Assembly: GCA_963972905.1 (NCBI GenBank)
Contig: CAXAXQ010000016.1
Span: 20,446 to 84,445 of the forward strand
Direction of reading: 5' to 3'
DNA from: an uncultured Erythrobacteraceae bacterium
Lineage (GTDB): Bacteria; Pseudomonadota; Alphaproteobacteria; Sphingomonadales; Sphingomonadaceae
DNA: 64,000 bases
In this document: one piece after another, positions 5,320-26,235 of the stretch
Layout of the letters: every line of letters begins with the position of its first letter
Numbering within the stretch: the stretch's first letter is position 1
Made by a program: the position numbers and the translations under genes
The notes under the pieces: model-generated
Told to the model about the DNA's origin: nothing
The model's input: only the letters and a program-made list of their open reading frames with translations
The model's database searches: none

Positions 5320-6126
5320 TCAGTTGGCCAGCGCGACCTGCGTGTCGGCCGCGTGATCCTCGACCAGCGCATAGGCCTTGTCGTACCATTCGCTGCCGGG
5401 ATAGTTCGCACCGAGCACGGCGGCATACTTCTTCGCTTCCCGCGGAATGCCCAGCGCCAGGCTGGTTTCGGTCAGGCGATAGAGCGCTTCGGCGGCGTGG
5501 CTGGTGGTTTGGTACTCATCGACCACGTTCTGGAAGCGGATCTGCGCTGCGGCCCACTTACCCGACTTTTCGTAGAAGCGGCCAATGTCCATTTCCTTGC
5601 CCGCCAGATGATCGCGCACGAGGTCGATCTTGAGCCGCGCGTCGGAGGCATATTCCGATTGCGGGAAGCGACGCTCCACCTCGCGCAGGGCGACCAGCGC
5701 CTGCTCGGTCACCTTCTGGTCCCGCTGTACATCGCTGATCTGCTCGTAATAGCTCAGCGCGATCAGGTAATAGGCGTAAGGCGCGTCCTTGTTACCCGGG
5801 TGGATCGACAGGAAGCGCTGCGCGCTCTGGATCGCTTTCGAATAGTCCCGCGACACATAGTAGCTGAAAGCGCTCATCAACTGTGCGCGGCGCGCCCACG
5901 GCGAATAGGGGTGCTGGCGCTCCACCTCGTCGAACAGGGCGGCCGCGAGCTGTGGATTGCCACGGTCGAGCCGCTGCTTGGCGGTCGCGTAAAGCGTTTC
6001 CACGTCACGCGCGACATAGGCGGTATCACCCGGGCCGCCGCTGCCGCTGCCGGCACAACCGGACACGAGAGTGGCAATGGTGCCGAGGGCGAGCGCGGCG
6101 GCGATGGTCTTGGTGTTGGCTGTCAT
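5320..6126 (-). CDS. bamD: outer membrane protein assembly factor BamD (TPR lipoprotein)
   Basis: Signal peptide with lipobox LVSGC; TPR-like repeats typical of YfiO/BamD. Confidence 0.85.
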   Translation of the reverse strand: MTANTKTIAAALALGTIATLVSGCAGSGSGGPGDTAYVARDVETLYATAKQRLDRGNPQLAAALFDEVERQHPYSPWARRAQLMSAFSYYVSRDYSKAIQSAQRFLSIHPGNKDAPYAYYLIALSYYEQISDVQRDQKVTEQALVALREVERRFPQSEYASDARLKIDLVRDHLAGKEMDIGRFYEKSGKWAAAQIRFQNVVDEYQTTSHAAEALYRLTETSLALGIPREAKKYAAVLGANYPGSEWYDKAYALVEDHAADTQVALAN

Positions 6127-6186
6127 GGTCGCGCGGTATAGCGACCACCGCCATGAACGCCAAGTGAAACGCTGGGCCAGTCTCGC

Positions 6187-7359
6187 TCAGCTGGCCGGAC
6201 GCTCGCCATGGCCGGAAAGCTCGTTTCCATCGGGCGCGTCCCACAACAGATGGCGCCCCTCGAGCGCGACCAGGTTCTTCGACCGGATGACTTCGCCCTT
6301 GGTCTTGTAGCCAAGCAGCTGTTCGGCATCCAGATGCGGGTTCACCGCCAGCACGCGCAGCTCTTCGGAGGTGAAGTCGGATAGGCCGCGCGCACGCTCC
6401 TGCCCCTGCTGGTCGTAGATGTGGAGCACATCGCCCCGGCTGAAATCCCCGTCGATCGACAGGATGTCCTCGCGCCGGATCGCCCGGTCGCCGCTGGCCA
6501 GCTCGTCCGCAAGTTCGTCCGAAACGCCGATACTGCCCGCCATCTGGAGGCGGTTGGCGATCCACCTTTCCCATCCCGATGTCGGGGTATCATGGGCGAG
6601 AAACTTGGTCGCCCGGCGCTCTCCGTCGAGGACCGTCGTGAGCGGACAATCCACCTCGCCATGCGCGATGTAGGTGGTGACGCCCGCTTCCTGCGCGATG
6701 TTCGCAGCCATCAGCTTGGTCGTCATGCCACCGGTGCCCAACGTGCTCTTGCCCTTGGTGGCCTCCATATAGGGGCCAACGTCGGTCACTTCGGGAATGA
6801 ATTCCGCGCCTTCCTCGTCCGGATTGCGATCGAACAGGCCATCGACCTCGGTCAGAATGATGAAGTCCTTCGCATCGACCATCTGTGCGACCTTGGCCGC
6901 CAGCCGGTCGTTGTCGCCGACCCGGATTTCCTCGGTCGTGATCGAATCGTTTTCGTTGACGATCGGGATGACGCCCGCCTCGAGCAGGCGGAACACGGTG
7001 TTGCGGGTATTGAGGAAGCGCCGATGATCTTCGAAATCGCCGAGCGTCAGCAGGACCTGTGCGATTTCGAAATCGAATTCGTGGCCGATCTGCTTGTAGG
7101 CATTGGTCAGTATCGGCATGCCGCAGGCGGCGGCCGCCTGCTTGTCGCTCACTCCGGCGGTGTCGGGTCGCTCGCCCACGATCTTGAGGCCCAGCGCGAC
7201 CGCGCCCGAGCTGCACAGGATCACGTTGATACCGCGATCGCGCAACGCGGCCACATCTTCCAGCAGGCGCTGGATGAACCCGAACCGGGGGGTCAGGCGT
7301 TCACTATTCGCAATGAGGGTGGAGCCTATCTTGACGACGACGGTGTGCGATTGCGACAT
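6187..7359 (-). CDS. proB: glutamate 5-kinase with C-terminal PUA domain
   Basis: 390 aa with VVVKIGS N-terminus, NENDS..GDNDRLAA and GTGGMTTKL motifs, and a PUA-like tail. Confidence 0.93.
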   Translation of the reverse strand: MSQSHTVVVKIGSTLIANSERLTPRFGFIQRLLEDVAALRDRGINVILCSSGAVALGLKIVGERPDTAGVSDKQAAAACGMPILTNAYKQIGHEFDFEIAQVLLTLGDFEDHRRFLNTRNTVFRLLEAGVIPIVNENDSITTEEIRVGDNDRLAAKVAQMVDAKDFIILTEVDGLFDRNPDEEGAEFIPEVTDVGPYMEATKGKSTLGTGGMTTKLMAANIAQEAGVTTYIAHGEVDCPLTTVLDGERRATKFLAHDTPTSGWERWIANRLQMAGSIGVSDELADELASGDRAIRREDILSIDGDFSRGDVLHIYDQQGQERARGLSDFTSEELRVLAVNPHLDAEQLLGYKTKGEVIRSKNLVALEGRHLLWDAPDGNELSGHGERPAS

Positions 7360-7578
7360 GTTCTATCCATCTTGGCGGCGAGAAGAGTGGCGCGGACATA
7401 GGCAAGGGTGTTGCATCGCACAACCCGCTGGAAAAAATTGCACGGCTGTGTTATAAAAGAATAAACATATCGAACAGGCTCGGCGCAGCGCGGTCGTAAC
7501 AAGATCGCATCGAGCGCTTCAAACAAAAGACGGAGAGATATTATCTTTCAAGACATACTTCTTATCGGCTGCGGCAAG

Positions 7579-8328
7579 ATGGGTGGCGCTCTTCTCGAAT
7601 ACTGGAAACGCGGGGACGAGAGCTACACCATCGTCGATCCGTTTCTGGAACAAGCACCCGAAGGTGTTGCCTTGGTCAAGGACAAGGCAGCCCTGGGCGA
7701 CAAGCGCTTCGATGTGATCATCGTCGCGGTCAAGCCGCAGATGATCGACGACATCCTGCCCGCTTACGCGCCCGTTCTGTCCGATGGGGGCTATGTCGTC
7801 TCGATGGCGGCAGGCGCATCCATCGCGCGGATCTCGCAGGTCATGGGCGACGCGCCGGTAATCCGGATCATGCCCAACCTGCCCGCCTTCGTGGGCAAGG
7901 CGACCAACGGCCTCGTCGCAGGCCCGGGCGTCTCCGACGATCAGCGCAAGCACGCCACCATGATGATGGAGCGTACCGGCACCGTGGTCGAAGTCGCGGA
8001 CGAAGACCAGCTCGACCGCGTAACCGCCGTCGCAGGCTCGGGCCCCGGCTACGTCTTCGAACTCGCCCGCGCTTACGTCGCTGCGGCGGAAGGCATCGGA
8101 TTCTCGCACGAACAAGCCCGCGCGCTGGTTCTGGGCACGCTGGAAGGGACGATCGCGATGGCTATCGACCAACATGACCAGTCGCTGGAAGACTTGCGCA
8201 ATTCGGTCACCAGCAAGGGCGGCACCACCGCGGCCGGGCTCGATGCGCTCAACGGCGATGGCGCGGTGTCGCGCAAGTTCGAAGAAACGCTGCAGGCGGC
8301 CTACAAACGCGCCGTCGAACTGCGCTGA
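7579..8328 (+). CDS. proC: pyrroline-5-carboxylate reductase (true start probably upstream at a non-canonical codon)
   Basis: ProC-like throughout, with a C-terminal [10 protein letters not shown] motif. The Rossmann motif [10 protein letters not shown] begins at 7555, upstream of the first ATG at 7579 (see finding). Confidence 0.85.
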
Positions 8329-8434
8329 GCGGCGCGGCGGGGCGCGCCCTGAGCACGCTTCCGGAACCTCGGCCCCGTCTTGCCCGTCTAACAAGTGCAG
8401 CTTTACCAAGAAAACAGATCCGAAGAGGACTACC

Positions 8435-9700
8435 ATGAACGACCAGACCCTAGACCCCGCAATTCATATCCATGAGCTTGGAAGCAATGCGCGTGCGGCC
8501 GCCAAGGGCCTGCTGACCGCGAGCACCGATGCCAAGAACAACGCCCTGCGCGCTGCCGCCAAGGCATTGCGCGACAATCAGGATGAACTGCTCGAAGCCA
8601 ATGCCGAGGATGTCGAAAGCGTCGCGGGCAAGAAGCCGGAAAGTTTCGTCGACCGGCTGAAGCTTACGCCCGACCGGGTCGAGGGCATGGCATCCGCGCT
8701 CGAACAGATTGCTGAACTGCCCGATCCCGTGGGACGCAAGCTGGCCGAGATCGACCGGCCCAACGGGTTGAAGATCGAACGTGTCGCAGTGCCCATCGGC
8801 GTGATCGGCATGATCTACGAATCGCGGCCCAATGTCGGCGCCGACGCATCGGCACTGTGCCTCAAGTCGGGCAACGCGGTGATCCTGCGCGGCGGCAGCG
8901 AAAGCCGCCATTCGACCCGCGTAATCGTGCGCTGCATGCAGGAAGGCCTCAAGGCCGCCGGCCTGCCAGAACACGCGGTGCAGACTGTGGGTACGACCGA
9001 CCGTGCCGCCGTGGCCGCGCTGCTCAAGGCGGACGAGTTCGTCGACCTTGTCATCCCGCGCGGCGGGCGTGGTCTCGTCGAGCTGGTGCGCGATCAGGCG
9101 AGCGTGCCCACGCTGCTCCACCTCGACGGCAACTGCCACACCTATGTCCATGAAAAGGCTGATCTCGACAAGGCGGCCGAAGTGATCCGCAATGCCAAGC
9201 TGCGCCGGACCGGCGTATGCGGGGCGACCGAGAGCATCGTGGTCGACCGCGCCGTTGCGGAACAGGCCATCCCTAAGATCGCGGCGATCTTCGGCGATGA
9301 TTGCGAGCTGCGCGGCGACGAAACCGCCGTGTCGATCGCGCCCAGCATCAAGCCCGCCACGGACGAAGACTGGGGCACCGAATATCTCGATCCCATCGCG
9401 AGCGTGAAGGTGGTCGATGGCCTCGACGAGGCGATCGACTGGGTCGATACCTATTCGAGCCACCACACCGACGCGATCATCACCGAAGATGACGATGCAG
9501 CGCGCAAGTTCATGACCAGCATCGACAGCGCGATACTGATGCACAATGCCTCCACGCAGTTTGCGGACGGCGGCGAGTTCGGGATGGGCGCGGAGATCGG
9601 TATCGCGACCGGCAAGATGCACGCACGAGGGCCCGTCGGCCTCGAACAGCTGACCAGCTTCAAATATCTCGTCCACGGCAACGGCCAGACGCGGCCGTAA
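8435..9700 (+). CDS. proA: gamma-glutamyl phosphate reductase
   Basis: Internal ATG at 8435 ([22 protein letters not shown]). [12 protein letters not shown] and catalytic-Cys region GVCGATES. The longer ORF from 8174 overlaps proC. Confidence 0.93.
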
Positions 9701-9766: not shown

Positions 9767-11722
9767 TCAGATATTGGTGCTACACGGGATGAGGCTGGGC
9801 AGCAGGAAGGTGTAGGGCCGCATCCGTTGCGCATTTCGCGCGACGATCTGCTGTTCGACATCGGCCAGCGCTGAGCAGAAGCGCGACAGCGGGCCGCCCT
9901 TCCCGGTGATCTGCGGGTCCTGAAACCACTGCGGATAAGGGAAGTCGGGCGACAGATAGGTGCCCAGCGGGCGGTAGTACAGCGAGCCGAGCAGGAACAG
10001 CACCTTCAACTGTTGCAGCGCCAGAACCTCGGGCGGCATCATCGCGAGCCAGCTGGTCTTGGTCCCGCCCTTCTGCGTATCGGGGGCCGGTTGCCAGAAC
10101 GCGCCCGTCACCGCCGGAGCGTATTCCATGATCGCCTTTTGCGGGAAGTTGACCGAGGCATGCTGCGCGCTGCCGGTGAAGATCGTCATCGTGCAGATAT
10201 CGATCAATTCTTGAATGGTCGTCGGCGCGGCGAACCCTTTCAGCTTGCCGCTGTCGGAGATTGCAGCCGCCCATGCCTGCAATTCCGTATCGCCGGTCAC
10301 GTCGTCGTCGGAGGAATAATAGGTCCGGATATAGGCCTTCGCCCAGCTCTCGATCGCGTTCCACACCAGCAGGCCGTCGTCGCGATAGGGGTAGTCGCCC
10401 AGCGCGGAATCTGCACCGACGCCGCGACTGACGATATCCTGCGGCAGCATGCCCTTGGCGAAATCGAAGCTAAGCCGCGCCTGCACGGCGGCCTGCTGGC
10501 TGCTCTTGATCGTGCCTGCGAAGATGTGGTCGATCGGGCCGCCCGCAGTGATCAAGCTGTTCGCGGCTGCGTCGTTGATGAACAGCGTGCCTTCGAAATG
10601 GGGTACCAGCAGCGCGTTGATCGGATGGGCGTCGGGAAGCTGGCGGTGAGTCGCGATGGCAATCGCCTCGATCACCAGATGCGTGCGCGCGAGATGGGCG
10701 AACAGCTCGTGATAATTGCCGTCGGCCACCTGAACGACCAGCTTGGCCATCTCCCAGCCCCACTGCTTCTCCGCACTCATGCTCGGGGTCATCACCGGGC
10801 TCGCCGCGTTGGACGGATCGCAGTTGATCGCGACCGGGACCAGGCTCTGCCCACCGGGCGGCACCGCGAACACCGCCACGGGGCAGGTCAGGTATTTGGC
10901 CGATCCGTCCCACTCGCCCGGCTTGATGATCGAGAGCGGAGAATAGTCGCACTTGAAGAAACGCCCCTCCTCCAGCGCCGCATCCAGCGTATCGCCCGGA
11001 ACAACCGCCGCATACTGCTTGGCCGTCACCGCGCATTTCTTCGGAATTTTGGCGATCGCCTCGATCAGCATGCAGTTGGGCCCCGCTACACGCAGGTTGG
11101 CGAATTCGAGATCGTCCTGGAATGTATAGGCGATCGGGGGAACCGCGATCGTCTTGAAATTGTCGAGATAGGTCTGGAGCGAGCGGGGGCGTTCCTTGCC
11201 CAACGCGGCCTTGGTTGCGCCGCGTAGTTCGATGACGCCTTTCAGCTTGGTCGCATGGTTCCTGAGGTCGGCGATGGCCACTTCAGCCTCGAACATGTGA
11301 GCGCAGTCCGTCGCCAGCGCGACGATCCCCTTGCCGCCGGTTACGTCCCCGGCGATCTTGGCCTCCAGCGCGGTGACGTCCTTCGCGATCGCGGCGACCA
11401 CCGCCCGGTCCGCCGCGATGAGCGCAGGATCGAGCGCGGAGAGGCCCTGTTCGACAAGCGATTCTTCCACCTTGATCTGGTTCATCGCCACCTCGATGAG
11501 GATCTTCACGAGCTTCAGCCACCATTCGAGCGTTGGCAATTCCGCCTCTGGCAGCGTCTTGACCACCGGCACACCTTCGAGCGAGGGCACCGCATCGGTC
11601 CACTCGTAGGTCGCCTGACTGGCCGCGAGCTGCGCCTCGCGGGCCTTGCGCTGCGCGGGCGTGTCGTTCTGCGGGAGGGTGGGATCAGCCGGTGCCTGGT
11701 GAGCCATTGTATTTCCGTCCAT
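9767..11722 (-). CDS. lipoxygenase (bacterial, no PLAT domain, no signal peptide)
   Basis: WxxAK-like WEMAKL, then H-x4-H-x4-H (YHELFAHLARTHLVIEAIAIATHRQ). Second ligand pair H-x3-N (GSAQHASVNFPQ) and C-terminal Ile (..PCSTNI). Confidence 0.88.
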   Translation of the reverse strand: MDGNTMAHQAPADPTLPQNDTPAQRKAREAQLAASQATYEWTDAVPSLEGVPVVKTLPEAELPTLEWWLKLVKILIEVAMNQIKVEESLVEQGLSALDPALIAADRAVVAAIAKDVTALEAKIAGDVTGGKGIVALATDCAHMFEAEVAIADLRNHATKLKGVIELRGATKAALGKERPRSLQTYLDNFKTIAVPPIAYTFQDDLEFANLRVAGPNCMLIEAIAKIPKKCAVTAKQYAAVVPGDTLDAALEEGRFFKCDYSPLSIIKPGEWDGSAKYLTCPVAVFAVPPGGQSLVPVAINCDPSNAASPVMTPSMSAEKQWGWEMAKLVVQVADGNYHELFAHLARTHLVIEAIAIATHRQLPDAHPINALLVPHFEGTLFINDAAANSLITAGGPIDHIFAGTIKSSQQAAVQARLSFDFAKGMLPQDIVSRGVGADSALGDYPYRDDGLLVWNAIESWAKAYIRTYYSSDDDVTGDTELQAWAAAISDSGKLKGFAAPTTIQELIDICTMTIFTGSAQHASVNFPQKAIMEYAPAVTGAFWQPAPDTQKGGTKTSWLAMMPPEVLALQQLKVLFLLGSLYYRPLGTYLSPDFPYPQWFQDPQITGKGGPLSRFCSALADVEQQIVARNAQRMRPYTFLLPSLIPCSTNI

Positions 11723-15052: not shown

Positions 15053-16176
15053 GCGGGTTTCGATCGCGCAATTTCCCCTCCCCTCGGGGAGGGGGCAGGG
15101 GGTGGGGGTTCGGCGCCCAAGGAACGCTCCGTTCACTGCTTCCGGCGCCTCACACAACCACCCTGCCTCCCCCTTCAGGGGCCCGGGTCTCCGCCTGTCT
15201 GCTGCTAGCTTTGCTGGCCACTCCTCTCACCGCGCAAGACCACTCCGCGCATGGCGAGAAGCCAGGCGCGCAGCCCGAGGTGGATCACTGCGCGATGGGG
15301 CACCTTTCGCCCGAACAGTGCGGCGAGCAGGAAGAGAGCCAATCTGCCCCGGCGATGGACGACGGCATGGCAGGCATGGACCATGGCTCTCATGGGATGA
15401 CCGACAAGTCGGCGCCGGGTGCCGCCCCCGAAAGCGCCCTTCCCCCGCGTGCGCTTCAGGGCCACGAGCATGCCGCCGATGCCATCTGGGGCGAGGACGC
15501 CATGGCGCCCGCGCGCCGGGAACTCGCCCGCGGGAATGGCGGAATGACCACCGGCATGATCCTCGTCGAGCGGCTCGAGGCGCGCATTACCACCGACGGG
15601 GACGAGACCGGCTACCGGTGGGACGCGCAGGCCTGGTACGGCGGCGACCTCAATCGCTTCGTGCTCAAGACCGAGGGCGAAGGGGAGTTCGGCGGCGCGG
15701 TGGACGATGCCGAGATCCAGGCGCTCTACAGCCGCGCGATCGGCCCATTCTTCGATCTGCAGGCCGGTGTGCGCTACGATCCCGAGCCCGACAGCCGCAC
15801 GCACCTCGTCCTCGGCGTGGCGGGCCTTGCGCCTTACATGGTCCATGTCGACGGGGCGCTGTTCCTGTCCGACCGGGGCGACCTCACCGCGCGGGTCGAG
15901 GCGGAATACGACCAGAAGATCACCCAAGCCCTCATCCTCCAGCCCCGGATCGAGGCGGAGTTCGCCGCGCAGGACATCGCCGAGCGCGCGATCGGCGCAG
16001 GCGTCGTCAAGGTCGAGCCGGGGCTGCGCCTGCGCTACGAGATCGCCCGCGAATTCGCGCCCTATGTGGGCATCGAATACGAGGCGAAGCTGGGCGAGAC
16101 GGCGAACATCGCGCGCGCAGGCGGCGAGGATCCGGACGGTTTCAAGGTTCTCCTCGGCGTGCGCGCCTGGTTCTAG
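15049..16176 (+). CDS. copB: copper resistance protein B (outer-membrane)
   Basis: ATGA overlap with the copA stop. His/Met-rich region (DHSAHGEK..MDDGMAGMDHGSHGM), beta-barrel-like C-terminal part ending ..LLGVRAWF. The N-terminal ~45 aa are encoded by a repeat element, so the start is uncertain. Confidence 0.82.
   Translation: MSGFRSRNFPSPRGGGRGWGFGAQGTLRSLLPAPHTTTLPPPSGARVSACLLLALLATPLTAQDHSAHGEKPGAQPEVDHCAMGHLSPEQCGEQEESQSAPAMDDGMAGMDHGSHGMTDKSAPGAAPESALPPRALQGHEHAADAIWGEDAMAPARRELARGNGGMTTGMILVERLEARITTDGDETGYRWDAQAWYGGDLNRFVLKTEGEGEFGGAVDDAEIQALYSRAIGPFFDLQAGVRYDPEPDSRTHLVLGVAGLAPYMVHVDGALFLSDRGDLTARVEAEYDQKITQALILQPRIEAEFAAQDIAERAIGAGVVKVEPGLRLRYEIAREFAPYVGIEYEAKLGETANIARAGGEDPDGFKVLLGVRAWF
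15074..15187. repeat. GC-rich palindromic MITE/REP-like element (family A) inside the copB 5' coding region
   Basis: Left arm is hairpin CCCCTCCCC-TCGG-GGAGGGG followed by GGGGGTGGGGG. Right arm CCACCCTGCCTCCCCCTTCAGGGG is a degenerate inverted copy. Same architecture as the elements at 54379 and 57786. Confidence 0.6.
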
Positions 16177-16314
16177 GCGGGCGCGGCTCGCCCGCTCCGC
16201 CCGCCGCGCAGCACGCGCGCGGCGCGGAAAATCGCTGTCCTACAGCCGCGCGGCCGGGGCATAGCCTTGCGCCCTCCCCGCCGCGCAAGGACCGCCGCCC
16301 ATGAGCTTCCGGCC

Positions 16315-17206
16315 ATGACCCGCAAAGCCGACAACCGCGAGCAGCGCCTGCCCGTGCCTGCTGGCGAGCTGCCCGACTTCGTCCCCGTCCCCCGCCACTG
16401 TGACCGCCACGACGGCTGGACCGAAGATCGCCAGCGCCGCTTCATCGCCGCGCTCGCCGATACAGGCAGCGTCCACGCCGCGTGCAAGGCGGTCAACATG
16501 AGCCAGGCGGGCGCCTACCACCTGCGCCGTCAGCCGGGCGCGGAGAGCTTTCGCGCGGCATGGGCTGCGGCGATCGACCTCGGCGTGCAACGCATCGAGG
16601 ACGTTGCGCCTTTCCTGTACGCGCAGCGCACAGGTAGATCTAAATGGGGACCGCGCGCTCAACGGCGTCGACGTGCCCGTCTATTCCTGCGGCAAGCTGA
16701 TCGGCACGCGGACCGCCTATAACGACCGCCTGCTGATGTTCATGCTCCGCAACCGCGCGCCAGAACGATTTGGGGGCTCGCGGTTTGCGGAAGGGCGCCG
16801 CGCCAATGGTCTTGGGGGCCTCAACGCGGTCGGCCAGATGGAGTTGAAGCGGCTCGAGAAACAATGGCGCGAGGAATACGAGCGCGAGCGTGCCCAGGGC
16901 GGCGAGGCCCGCGTGTTCGAAGCGCTCGACGCGAAGCTGAACGCGGCGCGCGACAAGTGGCTAACCGCCCTGAGCCCCCGCGCCCGCGCGGCCTACGACG
17001 CGTTCCGCGCGATCGAGGCCGAGGACAAGGCCGCAGGCTACCGCTGGTGGGATGACCCGGAGCATCCGGGGTATGATGACGGAGAAACCGACGACTGGGA
17101 AGACCGCGCCCTGCCCCCGCCCGGCTGGGAGCACCGTCCACCCGAAGAGGATGAGCCAGAGGAGACATCTCAGTGGCGCGGTTTGAAGGATGAGGGGTGG
17201 GAATGA
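16315..17206 (+). pseudogene. conserved HTH-like hypothetical gene split by a frame change near 16609-16648
   Basis: ORF 16315-16722 (frame 1) and ORF 16604-17206 (frame 2) overlap. The N part ends ..LGVQRIEDVA and the C part resumes DRALNGVDVPVYSCGKLIGTRTAYNDRLLMFMLRNRAPERF. The 40 nt between them (3n+1) break the frame. Confidence 0.5.
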
Positions 17207-17241
17207 TGGGTAGGTGAGAGTCCGAATCTATCTCCAGCGCC

Positions 17242-19047
17242 CTAGGCCTCGAGTAACGTCGAATAGAATGCTGGATCGCTCATCGCGATCCCAATACCTT
17301 TCGCAACGCAGGTTTCGGGTTCATCAGGTAGGTAAACAGGCAGACCAGTTTCCTGTTCGATCAACCTATCAAGTGAACCCAGCCGGGCCCCACCGCCGGT
17401 CAACACAATGCCCTGATCAACCACATCAGCAGCCAATTCCGGGGCTGTACCTTCCAGTGTAATTCGTATCGCCTCGACAATCGACTTCACGACATCCTCA
17501 AAAGCTTCAGCCAAGGACTCCTGAGACATCTCGACTTCCGCCGGAACACCTTGAACGAGATCACGACCGCGAAGACGGAATTTAAGATTCTTGACCGCAA
17601 AATCCGGTGAAGCAACACCGTACTCTCGTTTTATGCGTTCTGCTGTTGCACGCCCAATGTGCAAATTATGGTAGCGACGAACGTAGCTAATTACCTCATC
17701 CGTCATTCGATCCCCACCAGTTCGCACTGAAGTTGAGTAAGCAACGCCGTTAAGCGCAACAATGGCAACTTCTGTCGCCCCGCCTCCGATCGTCGCTACC
17801 ATCGTACCTACAGGATCAATCACCGGCGAGCCCGCTCCTAACGCAGCCATGAGCGGCTGCAGAACAATCGACACACGAGCGGCACCTGCTGCCTTAATGG
17901 CTTTGGCAATAGCCTTACGTTCAGCGGGCGTCGATCCTGCTGGCACACATAACACCACGTCCAAGGGTCGAATCAAATTTGGGCGCTCACCGGTAAGCGC
18001 GATAAAATGCTTCACCATAGCGGAGGCTACATCCAGATCAGCTATCACGCCCTCGCGGATGGGGTACACCACATTTATATTCTCAGGGGTTCTCCCTTCC
18101 ATTGCCAACGCTTCGTCACCAATGGCCACAATCTTGAAGAAACCGGGCTCCTGACGCAAAGCGACAGCCGAGGGTTGCGTCAATATCAAGCCCCTAGAAT
18201 TTGAGAATATTCGAGTATTCGTCGTACCCAAATCAATCGCGAACTCATGAACTAAGCCAAAGCGGCGAGACCTCCTTGTCCCTACGGCGCCCGTGGCAGA
18301 CCCTTCATTGTCTTCTTGGGGCTCAATGGTATCAGAGAATTTCTCAGTTGCGAGATCGACCTGAAGCCCCAATAGGGAGAACGTTTCTCTTACGTCCCTT
18401 CCAAATGCCTCTCTTTTCTCGTTATCTAAAATTAGAAGAGCATCAGCGCTAAATAATACCTTTAACCTCTTTCGAGTTTCGTGTACTATCTCAAAATTCC
18501 GAAGATCACTAGGAAGGTCGACTGGAGCGCCAGAATCCCTTAGGCATCTTGCAATTGCGATGGAGACATATTTTCTTAAAACTGTCTCACTTATCGCATC
18601 TTGCACGTCATCACTTGAAAAACGTGACTCAATTAGTTGGCGAACTTCCGAATAATACGTCGGACAGTTTTCCGAAGACACCGCTACCGCCAGATCTAGA
18701 AAGCTAAGCGGGGCTAGCTTACGGATGTCAGCGTGCTCATCCTCAGATTGGGCAAAAATCTCATGCGGCGTCCCGACAAAGGTAGAGTTATCAGTGATAA
18801 ACACTGATCTCCATTTATCCCCCGATCCAATTTCAATCGGATTCTCAAGATAGGCATGGCACTCCAGCGTCGTGACATCAAAGTCGAAAACGCAAGAATT
18901 AAGATCACCCGAAACTTCGGTCTCGCCAAGGTAAATAGCGTTGCTCAGAAAATTGGAAGAACGGAAAAGTGGGAGGGCTAAGCCAGGCCTCTCGAAAATA
19001 TGACAGCCAAATAGCTCGAATTTCGGAACACCAGTAATCTCCTTCAA
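17242..19047 (-). CDS. fusion protein: unknown ~265-aa N-terminal domain + MreB/actin-fold ATPase
   Basis: 601 aa with a TTG start overlapping the upstream stop. The C-terminal ~335 aa carry IDLGTTNT, IGGGATEVAIVAL, GGDRMTDEVISYVRR..IGRATAERIKREYG and LTGGGARLGSLDRLIEQETGLPV..DEPETCVAKG, the full MreB motif set. Residues 1-262 have no recognisable motif. Confidence 0.85.
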   Translation of the reverse strand: MKEITGVPKFELFGCHIFERPGLALPLFRSSNFLSNAIYLGETEVSGDLNSCVFDFDVTTLECHAYLENPIEIGSGDKWRSVFITDNSTFVGTPHEIFAQSEDEHADIRKLAPLSFLDLAVAVSSENCPTYYSEVRQLIESRFSSDDVQDAISETVLRKYVSIAIARCLRDSGAPVDLPSDLRNFEIVHETRKRLKVLFSADALLILDNEKREAFGRDVRETFSLLGLQVDLATEKFSDTIEPQEDNEGSATGAVGTRRSRRFGLVHEFAIDLGTTNTRIFSNSRGLILTQPSAVALRQEPGFFKIVAIGDEALAMEGRTPENINVVYPIREGVIADLDVASAMVKHFIALTGERPNLIRPLDVVLCVPAGSTPAERKAIAKAIKAAGAARVSIVLQPLMAALGAGSPVIDPVGTMVATIGGGATEVAIVALNGVAYSTSVRTGGDRMTDEVISYVRRYHNLHIGRATAERIKREYGVASPDFAVKNLKFRLRGRDLVQGVPAEVEMSQESLAEAFEDVVKSIVEAIRITLEGTAPELAADVVDQGIVLTGGGARLGSLDRLIEQETGLPVYLPDEPETCVAKGIGIAMSDPAFYSTLLEA

Positions 19048-19877
19048 AGCAAGCCCGCCTTATTATACCAATCTTCGGCGATCCTTTGAATATCCATTTG
19101 ATATTCGTTAGGGGACCGATTGGGCTGCCAGTCATATAACTTCAAATTAGCCCCCGCCCCTATCAATGGATCGACCAAATCCATTACTGGCTTATTACCT
19201 TCAACAAATTGTTTCGGCGCAATTATTAAGTGTAAATTGCCCGATATTTCTACGTTATGAGAAGCAGCCACTTCAATTGTCGAAGCCCTCATGTCATGCT
19301 CATTGCTACCTTCTGACCCGAGGCGCGCAATATCGAGATAACTTACTGCGACGGATTGAAAGGGCTTGATGGCGTCAGACAGCCCATGTCGGGTCCTTCC
19401 GGAATAATAATCCGAGACTTTCCCGAAGGCCCAACTTATAAATGTCAAAATTGATTTATAGTTTGGCTCGAGAGCGTAGTCCTCGAGCGGTACGTAAGGG
19501 TCCGCTTGGCTATCGAAAGAACCGTCTGCCGCACCCCCAGTATCAAAGGGATAAACATGTAATGGATCAGGAACAGCGGTGGACTTGAATACAAACGCTA
19601 CCGGGAATCGTGAAATTTGATGAGAATCTTCATCGCCGATTTTCGTTCGATATGCCGGACGCAAGACGAAGAAATATATTAAATCCTTCTTAAATACCTT
19701 ACACCGCCGTGTTAGTAGCTTACTACTACGGAGTATTTCTTTCGAGTTCCAAGCAGCTGTAACATGAACAAGGGGGAGCTCTCGCACATCCACCTCAGGG
19801 CCTGAAAGCCCAATCAGCTGGCGATCAAAGTTCCTATCCTCACGCCTTCGCAAGCCATGCCCCCCCCCTATCTTCAT
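19044..19877 (-). CDS. hypothetical protein, first gene of the low-GC cassette
   Basis: 277-aa ORF with AT-rich codon usage matching the downstream gene. Its stop TGA (19046-19044) overlaps the TTG start (19047-19045) of the MreB-fusion gene. No family recognised. Confidence 0.7.
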   Translation of the reverse strand: MKIGGGHGLRRREDRNFDRQLIGLSGPEVDVRELPLVHVTAAWNSKEILRSSKLLTRRCKVFKKDLIYFFVLRPAYRTKIGDEDSHQISRFPVAFVFKSTAVPDPLHVYPFDTGGAADGSFDSQADPYVPLEDYALEPNYKSILTFISWAFGKVSDYYSGRTRHGLSDAIKPFQSVAVSYLDIARLGSEGSNEHDMRASTIEVAASHNVEISGNLHLIIAPKQFVEGNKPVMDLVDPLIGAGANLKLYDWQPNRSPNEYQMDIQRIAEDWYNKAGLL

Positions 19878-19930
19878 TTAAGACTAGCGAGAAAATATAA
19901 GAGCTTCAATACGACAGCTTACTAACGCTA

Positions 19931-19991
19931 GTGGCTACTCCTCCCCCATCCGCAGCGTCGCAATGAAAGCCTCCTGCGGAATGCTCACATT
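19931..19991. repeat. diverged duplicate of the lepA 3' end (last 18 codons + stop + 4 nt)
   Basis: 56/61 identical to 20472-20532. On the minus strand it reads [18 protein letters not shown], versus [18 protein letters not shown] in lepA. Confidence 0.9.
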
Positions 19992-20072
19992 CCTCCCCGC
20001 CTACGCGGTGACCGGCCGCCTTGCGGGCGCTCGCGCATCCGCGCCCTCCCCGCAGCGAGCCGCCCCTCCCCC

Positions 20073-20387
20073 CTACCCCTTCTTCCGCTTCTTCCGCGCG
20101 GCGTACTTGGCGTCGCGGGCGGCTTTGAGTTCGGCTTCGGTGGGCTCGGGCACGTTGGCGGCGGCTTGCTTTTCTTCCTTTTCGGCCTTGGCCTGCGCGA
20201 TGGCGGCCTTGCGGGCGGCGCTCTTTTCGGCGGCGGCGGCGTCGCGCTCTTCCTGCTTGGCCTTGCGCCGGGCGACCTCTTCGGGGTCCATCGGCTTCTT
20301 CGCGGCCAGCTTCTTCAGCGCCTTGTCGCGGCGCTCTTGCGCCTGCGCGGCGCGTTCCTCGAACGTGGGTACTTTAAAACCTGCCAT
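20073..20387 (-). CDS. small Lys/Ala/Glu-rich conserved hypothetical protein
   Basis: 104 aa, MAGFKVPTFEERAAQAQERRDKALKKL...ARDAKYAARKKRKKG. GC-rich codon usage like the host. From memory it resembles a small alphaproteobacterial DUF family. Confidence 0.6.
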   Translation of the reverse strand: MAGFKVPTFEERAAQAQERRDKALKKLAAKKPMDPEEVARRKAKQEERDAAAAEKSAARKAAIAQAKAEKEEKQAAANVPEPTEAELKAARDAKYAARKKRKKG

Positions 20388-20471
20388 AGCGGGTGTCTTT
20401 TTCCTTCATTGGGCCGGCGGTGCCGGCATTGGTTGGCGCGAATAAGGGAGTGCGCGGGGTCGGGCAGGCGG

Positions 20472-20532
20472 GTGCCTACTCCTCCCCCATCCGCAGCGCG
20501 GCGATGAAAGCTTCCTGCGGAATGCTCACATT
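20472..20532. repeat. lepA 3' end copy of the 61-bp direct repeat
   Basis: Partner of 19931-19991; contains the authentic lepA stop (20476-20478). Confidence 0.9.
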
Positions 20533-22311
20533 ACCATATTCGCGCATCCGGGCCTTGCCCTTTTTCTGCTTGTCGAGCAGCTTCTTCTTGCGGCTGATGT
20601 CGCCGCCGTAGCATTTGGCGGTCACGTCCTTGCGCAACGCGGCGATGGTCTCGCGCGCGATCACCTTGCCGCCGATCGCGGCCTGGATCGGGATCTTGAA
20701 CAGGTGGCGCGGGATCAGGTCCTTCAAACGCTCGCACATGCCGCGGCCGCGTTCCTCCGCCACGCCCCGGTGGACGATCAGCGATAGGGCATCGACCGGC
20801 TCGTTGTTGACGAGGATGTTCATCTTCACGAGGTCGCCTTCGCGCAGGCCGATCTGCTCGTAATCGAAGGAGGCATAGCCGCGGCTGATGCTCTTCAGGC
20901 GATCGTAGAAGTCGAACACCACCTCGTTCAGCGGCAGCTCGTAGGTCACCTGCGCGCGCCCGCCGACATAGGTCAGGTTGGTCTGGATGCCGCGCCGGTC
21001 CTGACACAGTTTGAGGATCGAGCCGAGATATTCGTCGGGGGTGTAGATCACCGCCTTGATCCACGGTTCCTCGATCACCTCGATCCGGTTGGGGTCGGGA
21101 TAGTCGGCAGGATTGTGCAGCTCGATCACCTTGGCATCCTCGGTCTTCGAATGGCCGAGGTGGATGCGGTAGACGACCGATGGCGCGGTGGTGATCAGGT
21201 CGAGGTCGTATTCGCGGCTGAGCCGCTCCTGAATGATCTCGAGGTGCAGCAGGCCGAGGAACCCGCAGCGAAAGCCGAAGCCCAGCGCGGCGGAGCTTTC
21301 GGTCTCGAAGGTGAAGCTTGCATCGTTGAGGCGCAGACGGGCGATCGATTCGCGCAGCTTGTCGAAATCGGCGGCGTCGACGGGGAACAGCCCGCAGAAC
21401 ACCACCGGCTGCGGCTCGCGATAGCCGGGCAGCGCCTTGGTGGCGCCGTTCTTGACCGTGGTGATGGTGTCGCCGACGCGGGCCTGCTCCACCTCCTTGA
21501 TCTGCGCGGTGATGAAGCCGATCTCGCCCGGGCCGATCTCGGCGAGGTCGATGCGCTTGGGGGTGAAGGCGCCAACGCGGTCGATCAGGTGCTGGGTGCC
21601 GCCCTGCATGAACCTGACGCTGAGGCCCTTCTTGAGGACGCCGTCGATCACGCGCACGAGGATGACGACGCCTAGATACGGGTCGTACCAGGAATCGACG
21701 AGGCTGGCGGTCAGCGGCTGGTCGCGGTCGCCCTTGGGAGGCGGGATGCGCTTGACGATCGCCTCCAGCACATCCTCCACCCCGATGCCCGATTTTGCGG
21801 AGGTGAGCACCGCGCCGCCGGTCTGCCACGTGCCGGTGGCCTGGATGCCGACGATCTCCTCGATCTCCTCCGCCACCCGCTCGGGCTCGGCCGCGGGCAG
21901 GTCGATCTTGTTGATGACGGGCAGGATTTCGTGGTCGTGCTCGATCGACTGATAGACATTGGCGAGGGTCTGCGCCTCCACGCCTTGTGCCGCGTCAACC
22001 ACCAGCAGCGCGCCCTCGCACGCAGCGAGGCTGCGGCTGACTTCGTAGGCGAAGTCGACGTGGCCGGGGGTGTCCATCAGGTTGAGCTGGTAGGTCTCGC
22101 CGTCGCTGGCGGTGTAGTTGAGGCGCACGGTCTGCGCCTTGATGGTGATGCCACGCTCACGCTCGATATCCATGTTGTCGAGCAGCTGTTCGCTCATCTC
22201 GCGCTCGGTCAGGCCGCCGGTGAGCTGGATCAGCCGGTCGGCGAGCGTGGACTTGCCGTGATCGATATGGGCGATGATGCTGAAATTGCGGATTCTTGAA
22301 AGGTCGGTCAT
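20476..22311 (-). CDS. lepA: translation elongation factor 4
   Basis: 611 aa. G1 motif [26 protein letters not shown], and the LepA-specific C-terminal domain. Confidence 0.96.
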
Positions 22312-25096: not shown

Positions 25097-25332
25097 CCTA
25101 AATCCTATGCCTGAAAGCAGCTGGAGAAGGATTAACCATCAGGGTTAGGAAGAGGTTAAAGCCGATTACACCGACCCACGAATGGGCATCAGGCGACGCG
25201 TTATTGTGTTGCGTCGCAGCAAGCGCCATCACTGCACTTCCGTCCGGAAAAACGCAGTCTGAACAGACTACCCGTTCTGCTGGAATGCCACTCAGCTTTC
25301 GGTTTTTTGGTTTACTTTTAAGGCTTTGAAGA

Positions 25333-26235
25333 ATGATGCGCTTTAAAGACATGGACCTGCGCCTGCCCGGCTGGAGCCTGTTCGGCAGCACCGCGGGTAG
25401 TCAGTCACGCAAACACCCACGTGGCGAGCCGGGCGGCCCGCTGAGCGCGAAGGTCTCCTTAGAGACGGTCGACGGAATGGAGCTGCGGGTCGCGCGCTGG
25501 CGGCTCGACACCCCTTGCGCGCACCCCCCGCTGCTGTTCTTCAACGGGATCGGCGCGAACATCGAAGCGGTCGCTCCGCTGGCGGAAACGCTCACCGACC
25601 GGGGCTTCATCATGTTCGACATGCCAGGGACAGGGGAATCGCCCGATCCGGTGCTGCCCTACAATCCGTTTACCATGAGTTCGACCGCCGCGAGCGTGCT
25701 CGACAGCTTCGGGCTTGAAGCGGTCGATGTCATGGGGATGAGCTGGGGCGGCGCGATCGCGCAACAGTTTGCCCTGCAATACGCCAGCCGAGTGCGGCGC
25801 GTGGTGCTCGCCGCGACCTCTCCGGGAATGCTGATGATCCCGGGCGACCCGGCGATGCTGTTGCAGATGGCAGATCCCTTCTCGGGCCTTAACGCCATGC
25901 TGCGCAACGAATACCTGCTGGCGCTGGAGAATGCCGACGAGACCAGGCGCGCGCGCCATTCGATCGGCAATATCACTGCGCCCAGCAGCACGGGCTATTT
26001 CTACCAGCTGATGGCGCTGACCGGGTGGACCTCGCTCCCCGCCCTACCCTTCCTCGACAAGCCGGTGCTGGTGATGATGGGAGAGAACGATCCCATCGTG
26101 CCGCTAGCCAACGGCAGGTTGCTGGCAGGTGCGATTCCCGATGCAAGGCTGGAAGTGTTCGAGGGCGCAGGCCACCTGTTCCTGATGACCCAGCCGGAGC
26201 GGGCGATCGGCCTGCTGCGAGAGTTTCTGGGTTAA
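25333..26235 (+). CDS. phaZ: PhaZ-type poly(3-hydroxyalkanoate) depolymerase family alpha/beta hydrolase
   Basis: Blocks LLFFNGIGANIEAVAPL, GMSWGGAIAQQFALQYASRVRRVVLAATSPG and GYFYQLMALTGWTS..NDPIVPLANGRLLA..GHLFLMT closely parallel Pseudomonas PhaZ as I recall it. The start among several Met codons is uncertain. Confidence 0.75.
   Translation: MMRFKDMDLRLPGWSLFGSTAGSQSRKHPRGEPGGPLSAKVSLETVDGMELRVARWRLDTPCAHPPLLFFNGIGANIEAVAPLAETLTDRGFIMFDMPGTGESPDPVLPYNPFTMSSTAASVLDSFGLEAVDVMGMSWGGAIAQQFALQYASRVRRVVLAATSPGMLMIPGDPAMLLQMADPFSGLNAMLRNEYLLALENADETRRARHSIGNITAPSSTGYFYQLMALTGWTSLPALPFLDKPVLVMMGENDPIVPLANGRLLAGAIPDARLEVFEGAGHLFLMTQPERAIGLLREFLG

Follow-up and report, generated by a model that had tools for sequence, protein, structure and literature searches.

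A low-GC two-gene cassette in an Erythrobacteraceae genome pairs a DarT-like ADP-ribosyltransferase-fold protein with an MreB-fused partner: a candidate conflict module

We analysed a stretch of 64,000 nucleotides from the genome of an uncultured Erythrobacteraceae bacterium (contig CAXAXQ010000016.1, positions 20,446 to 84,445), hereafter the window, in which a low-GC island at positions 17207..19930 carries a cassette of two genes. The island, recognised from the composition profile and the GC content at third codon positions (GC3) and not assigned to a strand, has 48.9% GC, against 68% and 65% in its two flanks and 64.3% in the whole window, and the composition profile contained no 2.7-kb stretch of lower GC anywhere in the 64 kb. 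GC3 was 0.46-0.47 in the cassette genes and 0.8-0.9 in the neighbouring ones. A previous reading based on the letters alone (the sequence-only reading) had singled out this block for its alien composition, which our measurements bear out. Among its GC figures, the 52-55% given for the MreB module agrees with the measured 52.8%, whereas the 33-40% given for gene 1 and the N-terminal domain (NTD) of gene 2 was too low, the mean being 46.7% with 60-nt lines ranging from 35 to 62%. It had also rightly described two co-oriented genes with overlapping stop and start. Gene 1 (19044..19877, minus strand), an open reading frame (ORF) of 277 aa, encodes a DarT-like ADP-ribosyltransferase-fold protein, and gene 2 (17242..19047, minus strand, TTG start) encodes a protein of 601 aa consisting of the NTD, a linker and an MreB module; the stop of the former and the start of the latter overlap by 4 nt (TTGA, 19044-19047). 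Homologues and two independent gene calls suggest that the real start of gene 1 is the TTG at 19853, which would give a protein of 269 aa. Gene 2 was called identically, with 601 aa, on two public contigs, and both cassette genes are annotated as hypothetical in RefSeq.

The gene 1 protein matched no family in Pfam (with E-values up to 1), NCBIfam, PADLOC or PHROGs. The sequence-only reading, which had recognised no motif in it, was thus right as far as sequence families are concerned but missed an ADP-ribosyltransferase (ART) fold that emerged from structure prediction and structural comparison, as that reading had itself proposed to carry out. The AlphaFold2 model, built on a 43-sequence alignment, was of high confidence, with a predicted local distance difference test score (pLDDT) of 94.4 and a predicted template modelling score (pTM) of 0.92. 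Compared with the PDB by Foldseek, its matches at ranks 1-6 were all DarT/DarTG structures (E-values of 5e-5 to 4e-4, probability 1.0), the entries at the top of the list being 7omw, 7yk3, 7omv, 7omx and 7omy; they were followed by the ARTs CteC and SopF and by the ART-fold enzyme Tpt1. The model points to a DarT-like ART fold for the gene 1 protein, which is the likely effector of the cassette. The invariant positions of the 43-sequence alignment include H38, C59, Y68, Y76, D112, T113, D195, R197, E202 and W250. H38 lies on a predicted strand at residues 36-41, Y68 on another at 64-71 and E202 on a third at 202-205, in the same order as in the H-Y-E motif; a long helical insert separates the Y element from the E element. 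From this invariance and strand order, we infer that H38 (codon at 19764-19766), Y68 (19674-19676, with Y76) and E202 (19272-19274) form a candidate H-Y-E triad, the three codon positions having been verified on the minus strand. DarT2 carries an ARTD-type H-Y-E motif, with Y71 and E160, the latter being the catalytic glutamate of Thermus DarT2 (PMC11543638).

The gene 1 family comprises at least 119 clusters of proteins of about 270 aa, all of them annotated as hypothetical. Phage-encoded relatives were found neither with PHROGs nor by tblastn of 50,697 phage records, and Foldseek of the gene 1 model against viral models returned uncharacterised proteins only. Two stretches, 'LVH.T' and 'GRPAY', are retained in ART relatives at only 25-29% identity. 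Such distant ARTs (25-29% identity) occur at our loci L049 (Phaeobacter pP88_b, 5944-7645) and L050 (Methylobacterium pVL1_3, 5959-7991), where they overlap partners of 303 and 408 aa, respectively, that are missed by the NTD profile. The ART family thus extends beyond the NTD-linked clade.

The C-terminal part of the gene 2 protein (aa 264-601; 17242..18258, minus strand) is an MreB module. Its residues 268-591 matched Pfam MreB_Mbl with an E-value of 7e-108 (360.7 bits for a cut-off of 27), and in NCBIfam the module scored 376 bits against PRK13927 (cut-off 293) and 362.9 bits against TIGR00904, just below the cut-off of 365.75. The best match among PDB sequences was the MreB of C. crescentus (CcMreB; 4cze, E-value 4e-98, 48% identity). 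The module keeps D272, which corresponds to the phosphate-1 Asp D16 of CcMreB, as well as the glycine-rich phosphate loops and the adenosine motif. The set of MreB motifs, which the sequence-only reading called complete, is in fact incomplete, the catalytic or Mg-coordinating E140, D162 and T167 of CcMreB being replaced by Q397, T419 and A424 of gene 2 (codons at 17857-17859, 17791-17793 and 17776-17778 on the minus strand, positions verified). Glu140 is named as the catalytic glutamate of CcMreB, and the equivalents in Spiroplasma MreB5, E134, D156 and T161, coordinate Mg2+ and the catalytic water, the E134A variant being described as ATPase-deficient (PMC9195046). Judged by its residues, the module probably binds nucleotide without hydrolysing ATP. 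The same positions are rarely kept among the 16 MreB modules fused behind an NTD, since E140 is retained in 2/16 and D162 in 2/16; identity between these fused modules is only 30-60%. Foldseek with the full-length gene 2 model against viral models returned only actin and Hsp70 matches.

The NTD (aa 1-234, about 235 aa; 18346..19047, minus strand) is the part that defines the partner family. In the AlphaFold2 model of gene 2 (31 sequences, pLDDT 89.8), it is confidently predicted over aa ~9-232 and followed by the linker (235-263) and the MreB fold (267-600). The modelled NTD consists of seven consecutive beta strands (aa 9-92), the first ~85 residues being predicted all-beta, a helical bundle (94-169) and a small alpha/beta unit (186-232), and G22, F56, W79, G92, P113 and D118 are invariant in its alignment. 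No entry of Pfam, NCBIfam, PADLOC or PHROGs matched it, as anticipated by the sequence-only reading, which had placed an N-terminal domain of ~265 aa and of unfamiliar family here, and its profile gave chance-level matches only against PDB sequences. When 1.84 billion representatives were searched exhaustively with HMMER, 105 proteins proved to begin with the NTD. Word-indexed searches had returned nothing for the NTD, whether the query was one sequence or a 27-sequence profile, despite the presence in the collection of the identical 601-aa protein (L001); this negative result was a failure of sensitivity, because the exhaustive search recovered 105 representatives. The linker (aa 235-263; 18259..18345, minus strand) is predicted to be disordered (pLDDT < 50) and ends in the basic stretch RRSRRFGL. 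A similar RRxRRFGL-like stretch is kept in other MreB-type partners, and would correspond, according to the alignment, to the N-terminal amphipathic-helix region of free MreB.

To place the pair in a wider context, ART loci were sought in 185,579 species genomes, with one genome per species. Only 37 loci were found, all of them in Alphaproteobacteria. The NTD was encoded directly downstream of the ART in 35/37 species genomes, the two exceptions corresponding to partial ART matches only, so that the co-occurrence search suggested by the sequence-only reading came out in favour of a genuine pair. In most cases, the ART gene overlaps the NTD gene by 1, 4 or 28 nt. In a reverse look-up starting from partners with FtsZ, HPF and Roc C-termini, an overlapping ART (39-44% identity) was found upstream each time. 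The distances between ARTs and those between NTDs were correlated (Mantel r = 0.74, a value reached by 0/2000 permutations), and in a neighbour-joining tree built from the ARTs the rare C-terminal types were scattered among the ~900-aa types. The ART and the NTD are therefore co-inherited and co-diverging, with C-termini that have been swapped. That MreB is one of many interchangeable C-termini had escaped the sequence-only reading.

The commonest class of partners (about 70 of about 120 after clustering) has a length of ~900 aa and a ~680-aa module without recognisable domain. A PDB profile search with this class gave chance-level matches only. An MmeI-like target-recognition domain, considered for this class because of a 'TFETFPxP' motif, was rejected, as it reached an E-value of only 0.097 and MmeI was absent from the PDB profile matches. 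MreB forms the C-terminus of 16 partners, and the other cytoskeletal modules behind the NTD are FtsA and FtsZ (Tubulin plus FtsZ_C). We also found a Roc/Ras GTPase, GGDEF-EAL, an FAD-type oxidoreductase, squalene/phytoene synthase (SQS_PSY), an AMP-binding enzyme, the ribosome hibernation factor HPF (S30AE), LRR and TPR modules, a C-terminal cold-shock domain (CSD) and a POTRA insert. In FtsZ, the Asp of the T7 loop activates GTP hydrolysis in the neighbouring subunit. The NTD-FtsZ fusion (P0163, at L044 2783-4450) keeps GGGAGTG but reads TLEPDS in its T7 loop where S. aureus FtsZ has NLDFAD, so that the T7-loop Asp is lost in this partner. From its residues, the fusion would be a hydrolysis-defective FtsZ mimic, in parallel to the dead MreB of the window.

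The genomic company of the pair often includes genes of defence or mobility. Its most frequent direct neighbours are AIPR (MzaE) and DUF4420 (MzaD), genes of the Mza defence system, which directly adjoin it in 13/33 loci, either co-oriented upstream or convergent downstream; the same arrangement is present on a Rhizobium plasmid. The pair itself matches no Mza model, the cassette has none of the parts of Mza, and intact reading frames and invariant residues are retained in pairs without Mza. None of the four MreB-type loci examined (the window, L006, L008 and L051) lies next to Mza, and the FtsZ-, HPF- and Roc-type loci are likewise without it. One neighbourhood is an island with a UvrD/MZB/NERD/SLFN-type helicase; that of the FtsZ-type locus L044 contains an integrase, an excisionase-like helix-turn-helix protein (HTH_17) and an nSTAND3 protein, HipA, AbiEii-type and AbiTii genes and resolvases were observed at other loci, and some pairs are located on plasmids amid VapBC pairs. 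In 16/30 loci, the GC content of the pair is lower than that of its flanks by 3 points or more (43% against 67% for the flanks at L051). The foreign origin advanced by the sequence-only reading is thus supported in about half of the loci, and an association with defence and mobile genes, for which it had proposed to score the neighbourhoods, is seen in the Mza, toxin-antitoxin and integrase neighbours. Its view of the cassette as a candidate conflict or defence system of unnamed architecture also stands, given the 35/37 pairing, these defence and mobile contexts and the lack of a match in PADLOC.

Cassettes closest to that of the window (ART 67-69% identical) also have MreB partners. An MreB-type cassette lies beside lepA in three genomes, downstream of it in the window and at L051 and in inverted position at L006. 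Across these lepA-linked genomes, LepA is 82-85% identical, the ART 52-67% and gene 2 39-46%, which points either to repeated insertion at a hot spot or to an old insert that evolves very fast. In the window, a 61-nt direct repeat of the lepA 3' end (copy 2, 19931..19991, no strand assigned; 92% identical to copy 1 at 20472-20532) is located exactly at the border of the island, with the DUF6481 gene between both copies, and at L051 lepA is likewise followed by another, degenerate copy of its 3' end (about 8420-8475). The repeat at the island border looks like an old attachment-site (att) scar or an insertion hot spot, with no integrase nearby. When the identical LepA protein was used to look for a site without the insert, only contigs of the same genome were returned.

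Beyond the DUF6481 gene and lepA, this flank of the cassette contains a PAS-GGDEF-EAL-PilZ gene. On the other flank, we found genes for a lipoxygenase, a GGDEF protein and a multicopper oxidase together with small ORFs without assigned function; directly downstream of gene 2 come small ORFs of unknown function and then the CopB and multicopper oxidase genes. As stated in the sequence-only reading, no mreC or mreD follows gene 2, and neither these genes nor a second mreB are present within the 64-kb window. A sigma-70-like site (TTCAAA-17 nt-TATAAT with an extended -10 TG; 19062..19090, minus strand), detected by a consensus scan, lies inside gene 1, at its 3' end, and precedes the start of gene 2 by 15 nt. 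It could be a separate promoter providing gene 2 with its own transcript; this is only a lead, because the region has no more sites of this kind than expected from shuffling. Two further genes of the window may be mentioned. The lipoxygenase gene (9767-11722, minus strand) encodes a bacterial homologue of a family that is uncommon in bacteria (Pfam Lipoxygenase, E-value 9e-66). A 97-aa ORF (25098-25391, minus strand) beside the GGDEF-EAL-PilZ gene has an unusually low GC content (0.52) and no match in Pfam or PHROGs.

The explanation that we favour, with a probability of roughly 0.55, is that the two genes form a conflict module acquired by horizontal transfer, either a toxin-antitoxin or an anti-phage system, built like DarTG from different protein families. 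Gene 1 would be an NAD+-dependent ADP-ribosyltransferase acting as the toxic effector, possibly on DNA by analogy with DarT, and gene 2 would be its translationally coupled partner. In such a module, the NTD may bind the ART and hold it in check, or control it in some other way, while the swappable C-terminal module of the partner would give specificity. The MreB copy of the window has probably kept nucleotide binding and, with its hydrolysis residues gone, would therefore be a binding surface rather than a working cytoskeletal ATPase. It might serve as a bait for factors that attack the host MreB, such as phage inhibitors, whose engagement would free the ART, or else as a tether that brings the complex to the MreB filaments of the host. 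T7 Gp0.6 and Gp0.4 and lambda Kil are examples of phage proteins that inhibit MreB or FtsZ (PMC5624674).

Several observations weigh against this explanation. The resemblance of gene 1 to DarT is at the fold level only, with a TM-score of 0.40 when normalised by the query and 0.53 when normalised by the target, at ~11% identity. There was no match of gene 1 to Pfam DarT/DUF4433, and the profile of its 43 homologues gave chance-level matches without DarT against PDB sequences. Neither Pfam nor NCBIfam revealed a macrodomain or NADAR signature in gene 2, and a DarG-like reversal of the modification is thus not supported. No phenotype has been reported for any member of the family and none is present in PADLOC 2.0, in which gene 1 had no match and gene 2 a single chance-level one (E-value 0.027). 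The cassette is surrounded by ordinary chromosomal genes (lepA, the GGDEF protein gene and the multicopper oxidase gene), with no defence gene or integrase nearby and no Mza gene anywhere in the 64-kb window. Finally, the GGDEF-EAL, SQS_PSY, AMP-binding and Roc modules of other partners seem catalytically intact and do not stand out as targets of phages, which fits less neatly with a role as decoys.

Within the conflict-module explanation, the sequence-only reading had suggested that a filament-forming MreB paralogue acts as a sensor or decoy for phage factors. The loss of the ATPase residues and the existence of sister fusions with FtsZ, FtsA, HPF, TPR and LRR are compatible with this suggestion, and it is the role that we favour for the C-terminus, in conditional terms. 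Extended to the whole family, it would make the ART and NTD a bacterial integrated-decoy immune system, in which hydrolysis-dead copies of host proteins serve as phage bait and the binding of a phage inhibitor to them unleashes the ART. The baits would be MreB here and FtsZ, FtsA, HPF and CSD elsewhere, and phages would attack the host proteins that they copy. We put forward this generalisation tentatively and regard it, baits included, as possible but doubtful.

A different role for the partner would be that of an adaptor docking the ART onto a cellular machine rather than neutralising it. With HPF the dock could be the ribosome, with CSD and the ~900-aa class nucleic acid, and with the cytoskeletal modules filaments of MreB or FtsZ/FtsA; the ART would modify the docked machine or nearby molecules, leading to growth arrest with or without phage infection. 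Most of the C-terminal modules are indeed self-associating or machine-binding host proteins, and a hydrolysis-dead MreB or an FtsZ with a defective T7 loop would make stable co-polymer tags. Moreover, ARTs acting on cell-division proteins exist, as the type VI secretion system effector Tre1 ADP-ribosylates FtsZ. The TPR and LRR partners, however, resemble ligand sensors rather than tethers, the closest fold match of gene 1 is a DNA-modifying ART, and a toxin under constitutive targeting would have to be restrained in some other way, of which no sign was seen. We therefore consider that docking as the main function of the partner is rather unlikely.

The roles of the two genes could also be reversed, as in the sequence-only reading, which had envisaged a cytoskeleton-poisoning toxin controlled by its partner: gene 2 would then be a dominant-negative MreB and gene 1 its antidote or regulator. 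ATPase-site mutants of MreB are dominant-negative, as exemplified by the D165 mutants of E. coli, and the protein of the window is devoid of E140, D162 and T167. But the conserved enzyme of the pair is gene 1, with its ART fold and enzyme-like invariant residues, in gene 2 it is the NTD, not MreB, that the family conserves, and the gene 1 family is also paired with TPR, LRR, HPF, AMP-binding and ~900-aa partners that are no cytoskeletal poisons, most partner modules being non-toxic in appearance. We give very little credence to this reversal. Almost none is left for gene 2 as an MreB paralogue, housekeeping or specialised, whose N-terminal extension would be regulatory, or for a relic of an actin-type plasmid-partition system, the last possibility raised by the sequence-only reading. 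The strong match to MreB_Mbl (E-value 7e-108), the 48% identity to C. crescentus MreB and the recurrence of the site downstream of lepA in three genomes would fit such a paralogue. They are opposed by the loss of catalytic residues, by the lack of mreCD, by a GC content 15 points below that of the genome, by a cassette that diverges far faster than lepA (ART 52-67% and gene 2 39-46% against 82-85% for LepA), by an identity of only 30-60% among the fused MreB modules and by the restriction of the family to 37/185,579 species genomes. As for partition of the ParM/AlfA type, the locus has no ParR-like adaptor or centromere repeats: no repeat array was found in 16000-21500, the neighbouring gene has an ART fold and is not ParR-like, and the module is of the MreB type and not of the ParM type.

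The conflict-module explanation can be further evaluated by comparison with known systems. The cassette resembles DarTG in having two overlapping genes with the ART first (same order, 4-nt overlap), in a gene 1 model best matched by DarT structures, with a conserved set of candidate H-Y-E residues, and in a family present on plasmids and in defence islands. Among the known systems, it is DarTG that the cassette would most resemble in its working, as an ART toxin and a coupled partner. DarTG protects against phage by ADP-ribosylating phage DNA (PMC11825919). The cassette differs from DarTG in the lack of any sequence-level relationship of gene 1 (Pfam DarT, PDB sequences), in the length of gene 1 (~270 aa) with its long helical insert between Y and E, and in a partner that has a new NTD and a swappable C-terminus instead of the DarG macrodomain or the NADAR of DarT1 systems. 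With bacterial MreB, gene 2 shares a full-length MreB fold, 48% identity to 4cze and the conserved phosphate-1 Asp and loops, but E140, D162 and T167 are replaced, mreCD do not follow, and the module has a foreign composition (52.8% GC against 64.3% for the window) and diverges rapidly. It also has no free N-terminal amphipathic helix, because the MreB module is fused behind an extension of 263 aa. The cassette is thus neither a member of DarTG nor a housekeeping MreB nor a partition system.

Other parallels concern the logic of the system rather than its parts. Plant nucleotide-binding leucine-rich repeat receptors with integrated domains (NLR-IDs), Avs/STAND proteins and CapRel likewise combine a conserved regulatory module with rapidly swapped sensors, here TPR, LRR and copies of host proteins. 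Unlike them, the cassette has no NTPase switch domain and its effector is encoded by a separate ART gene; its decoy role is only putative. No bacterial case with MreB or FtsZ baits was found in the literature that we searched. The toxin-antitoxin module CbtA/CbeA (YeeV/YeeU) also revolves around MreB and FtsZ (PMC5624674), but CbtA itself, a small protein, binds to the MreB and FtsZ of the host, the system encodes neither an ART nor a cytoskeletal homologue, and it has no sequence similarity to the cassette. In the literature that we covered, which is incomplete, we found no prior description of DarT with MreB or FtsZ, of such decoys, of Mza/AIPR with an ART or of MreB-like proteins in defence islands. 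What would be new here is the ART family, the NTD as a regulatory domain and an unusual architecture of host-protein mimics in an ART-based toxin or defence pair.

If our interpretation is correct, a new family of ADP-ribosyltransferases, invisible to sequence profiles and known only as "hypothetical" in RefSeq, would exist in Alphaproteobacteria together with a new regulatory domain. The family would represent a natural experiment in sensor swapping, with a single effector and regulator core mounted on more than a dozen C-terminal modules. The idea that the cytoskeleton and the ribosome are guarded by fused dead baits would be testable with a 2.7-kb cassette, and the C-terminal modules could indicate which host proteins are targeted by alphaproteobacterial phages. 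Should the decoy role hold, the system would be a bacterial counterpart of the integrated decoys of plant NLRs and its list of modules a catalogue of the host targets of phages. Even under a conservative interpretation as a toxin-antitoxin pair, a hydrolysis-dead MreB fused to a toxin regulator would be an unusual reuse of bacterial actin.

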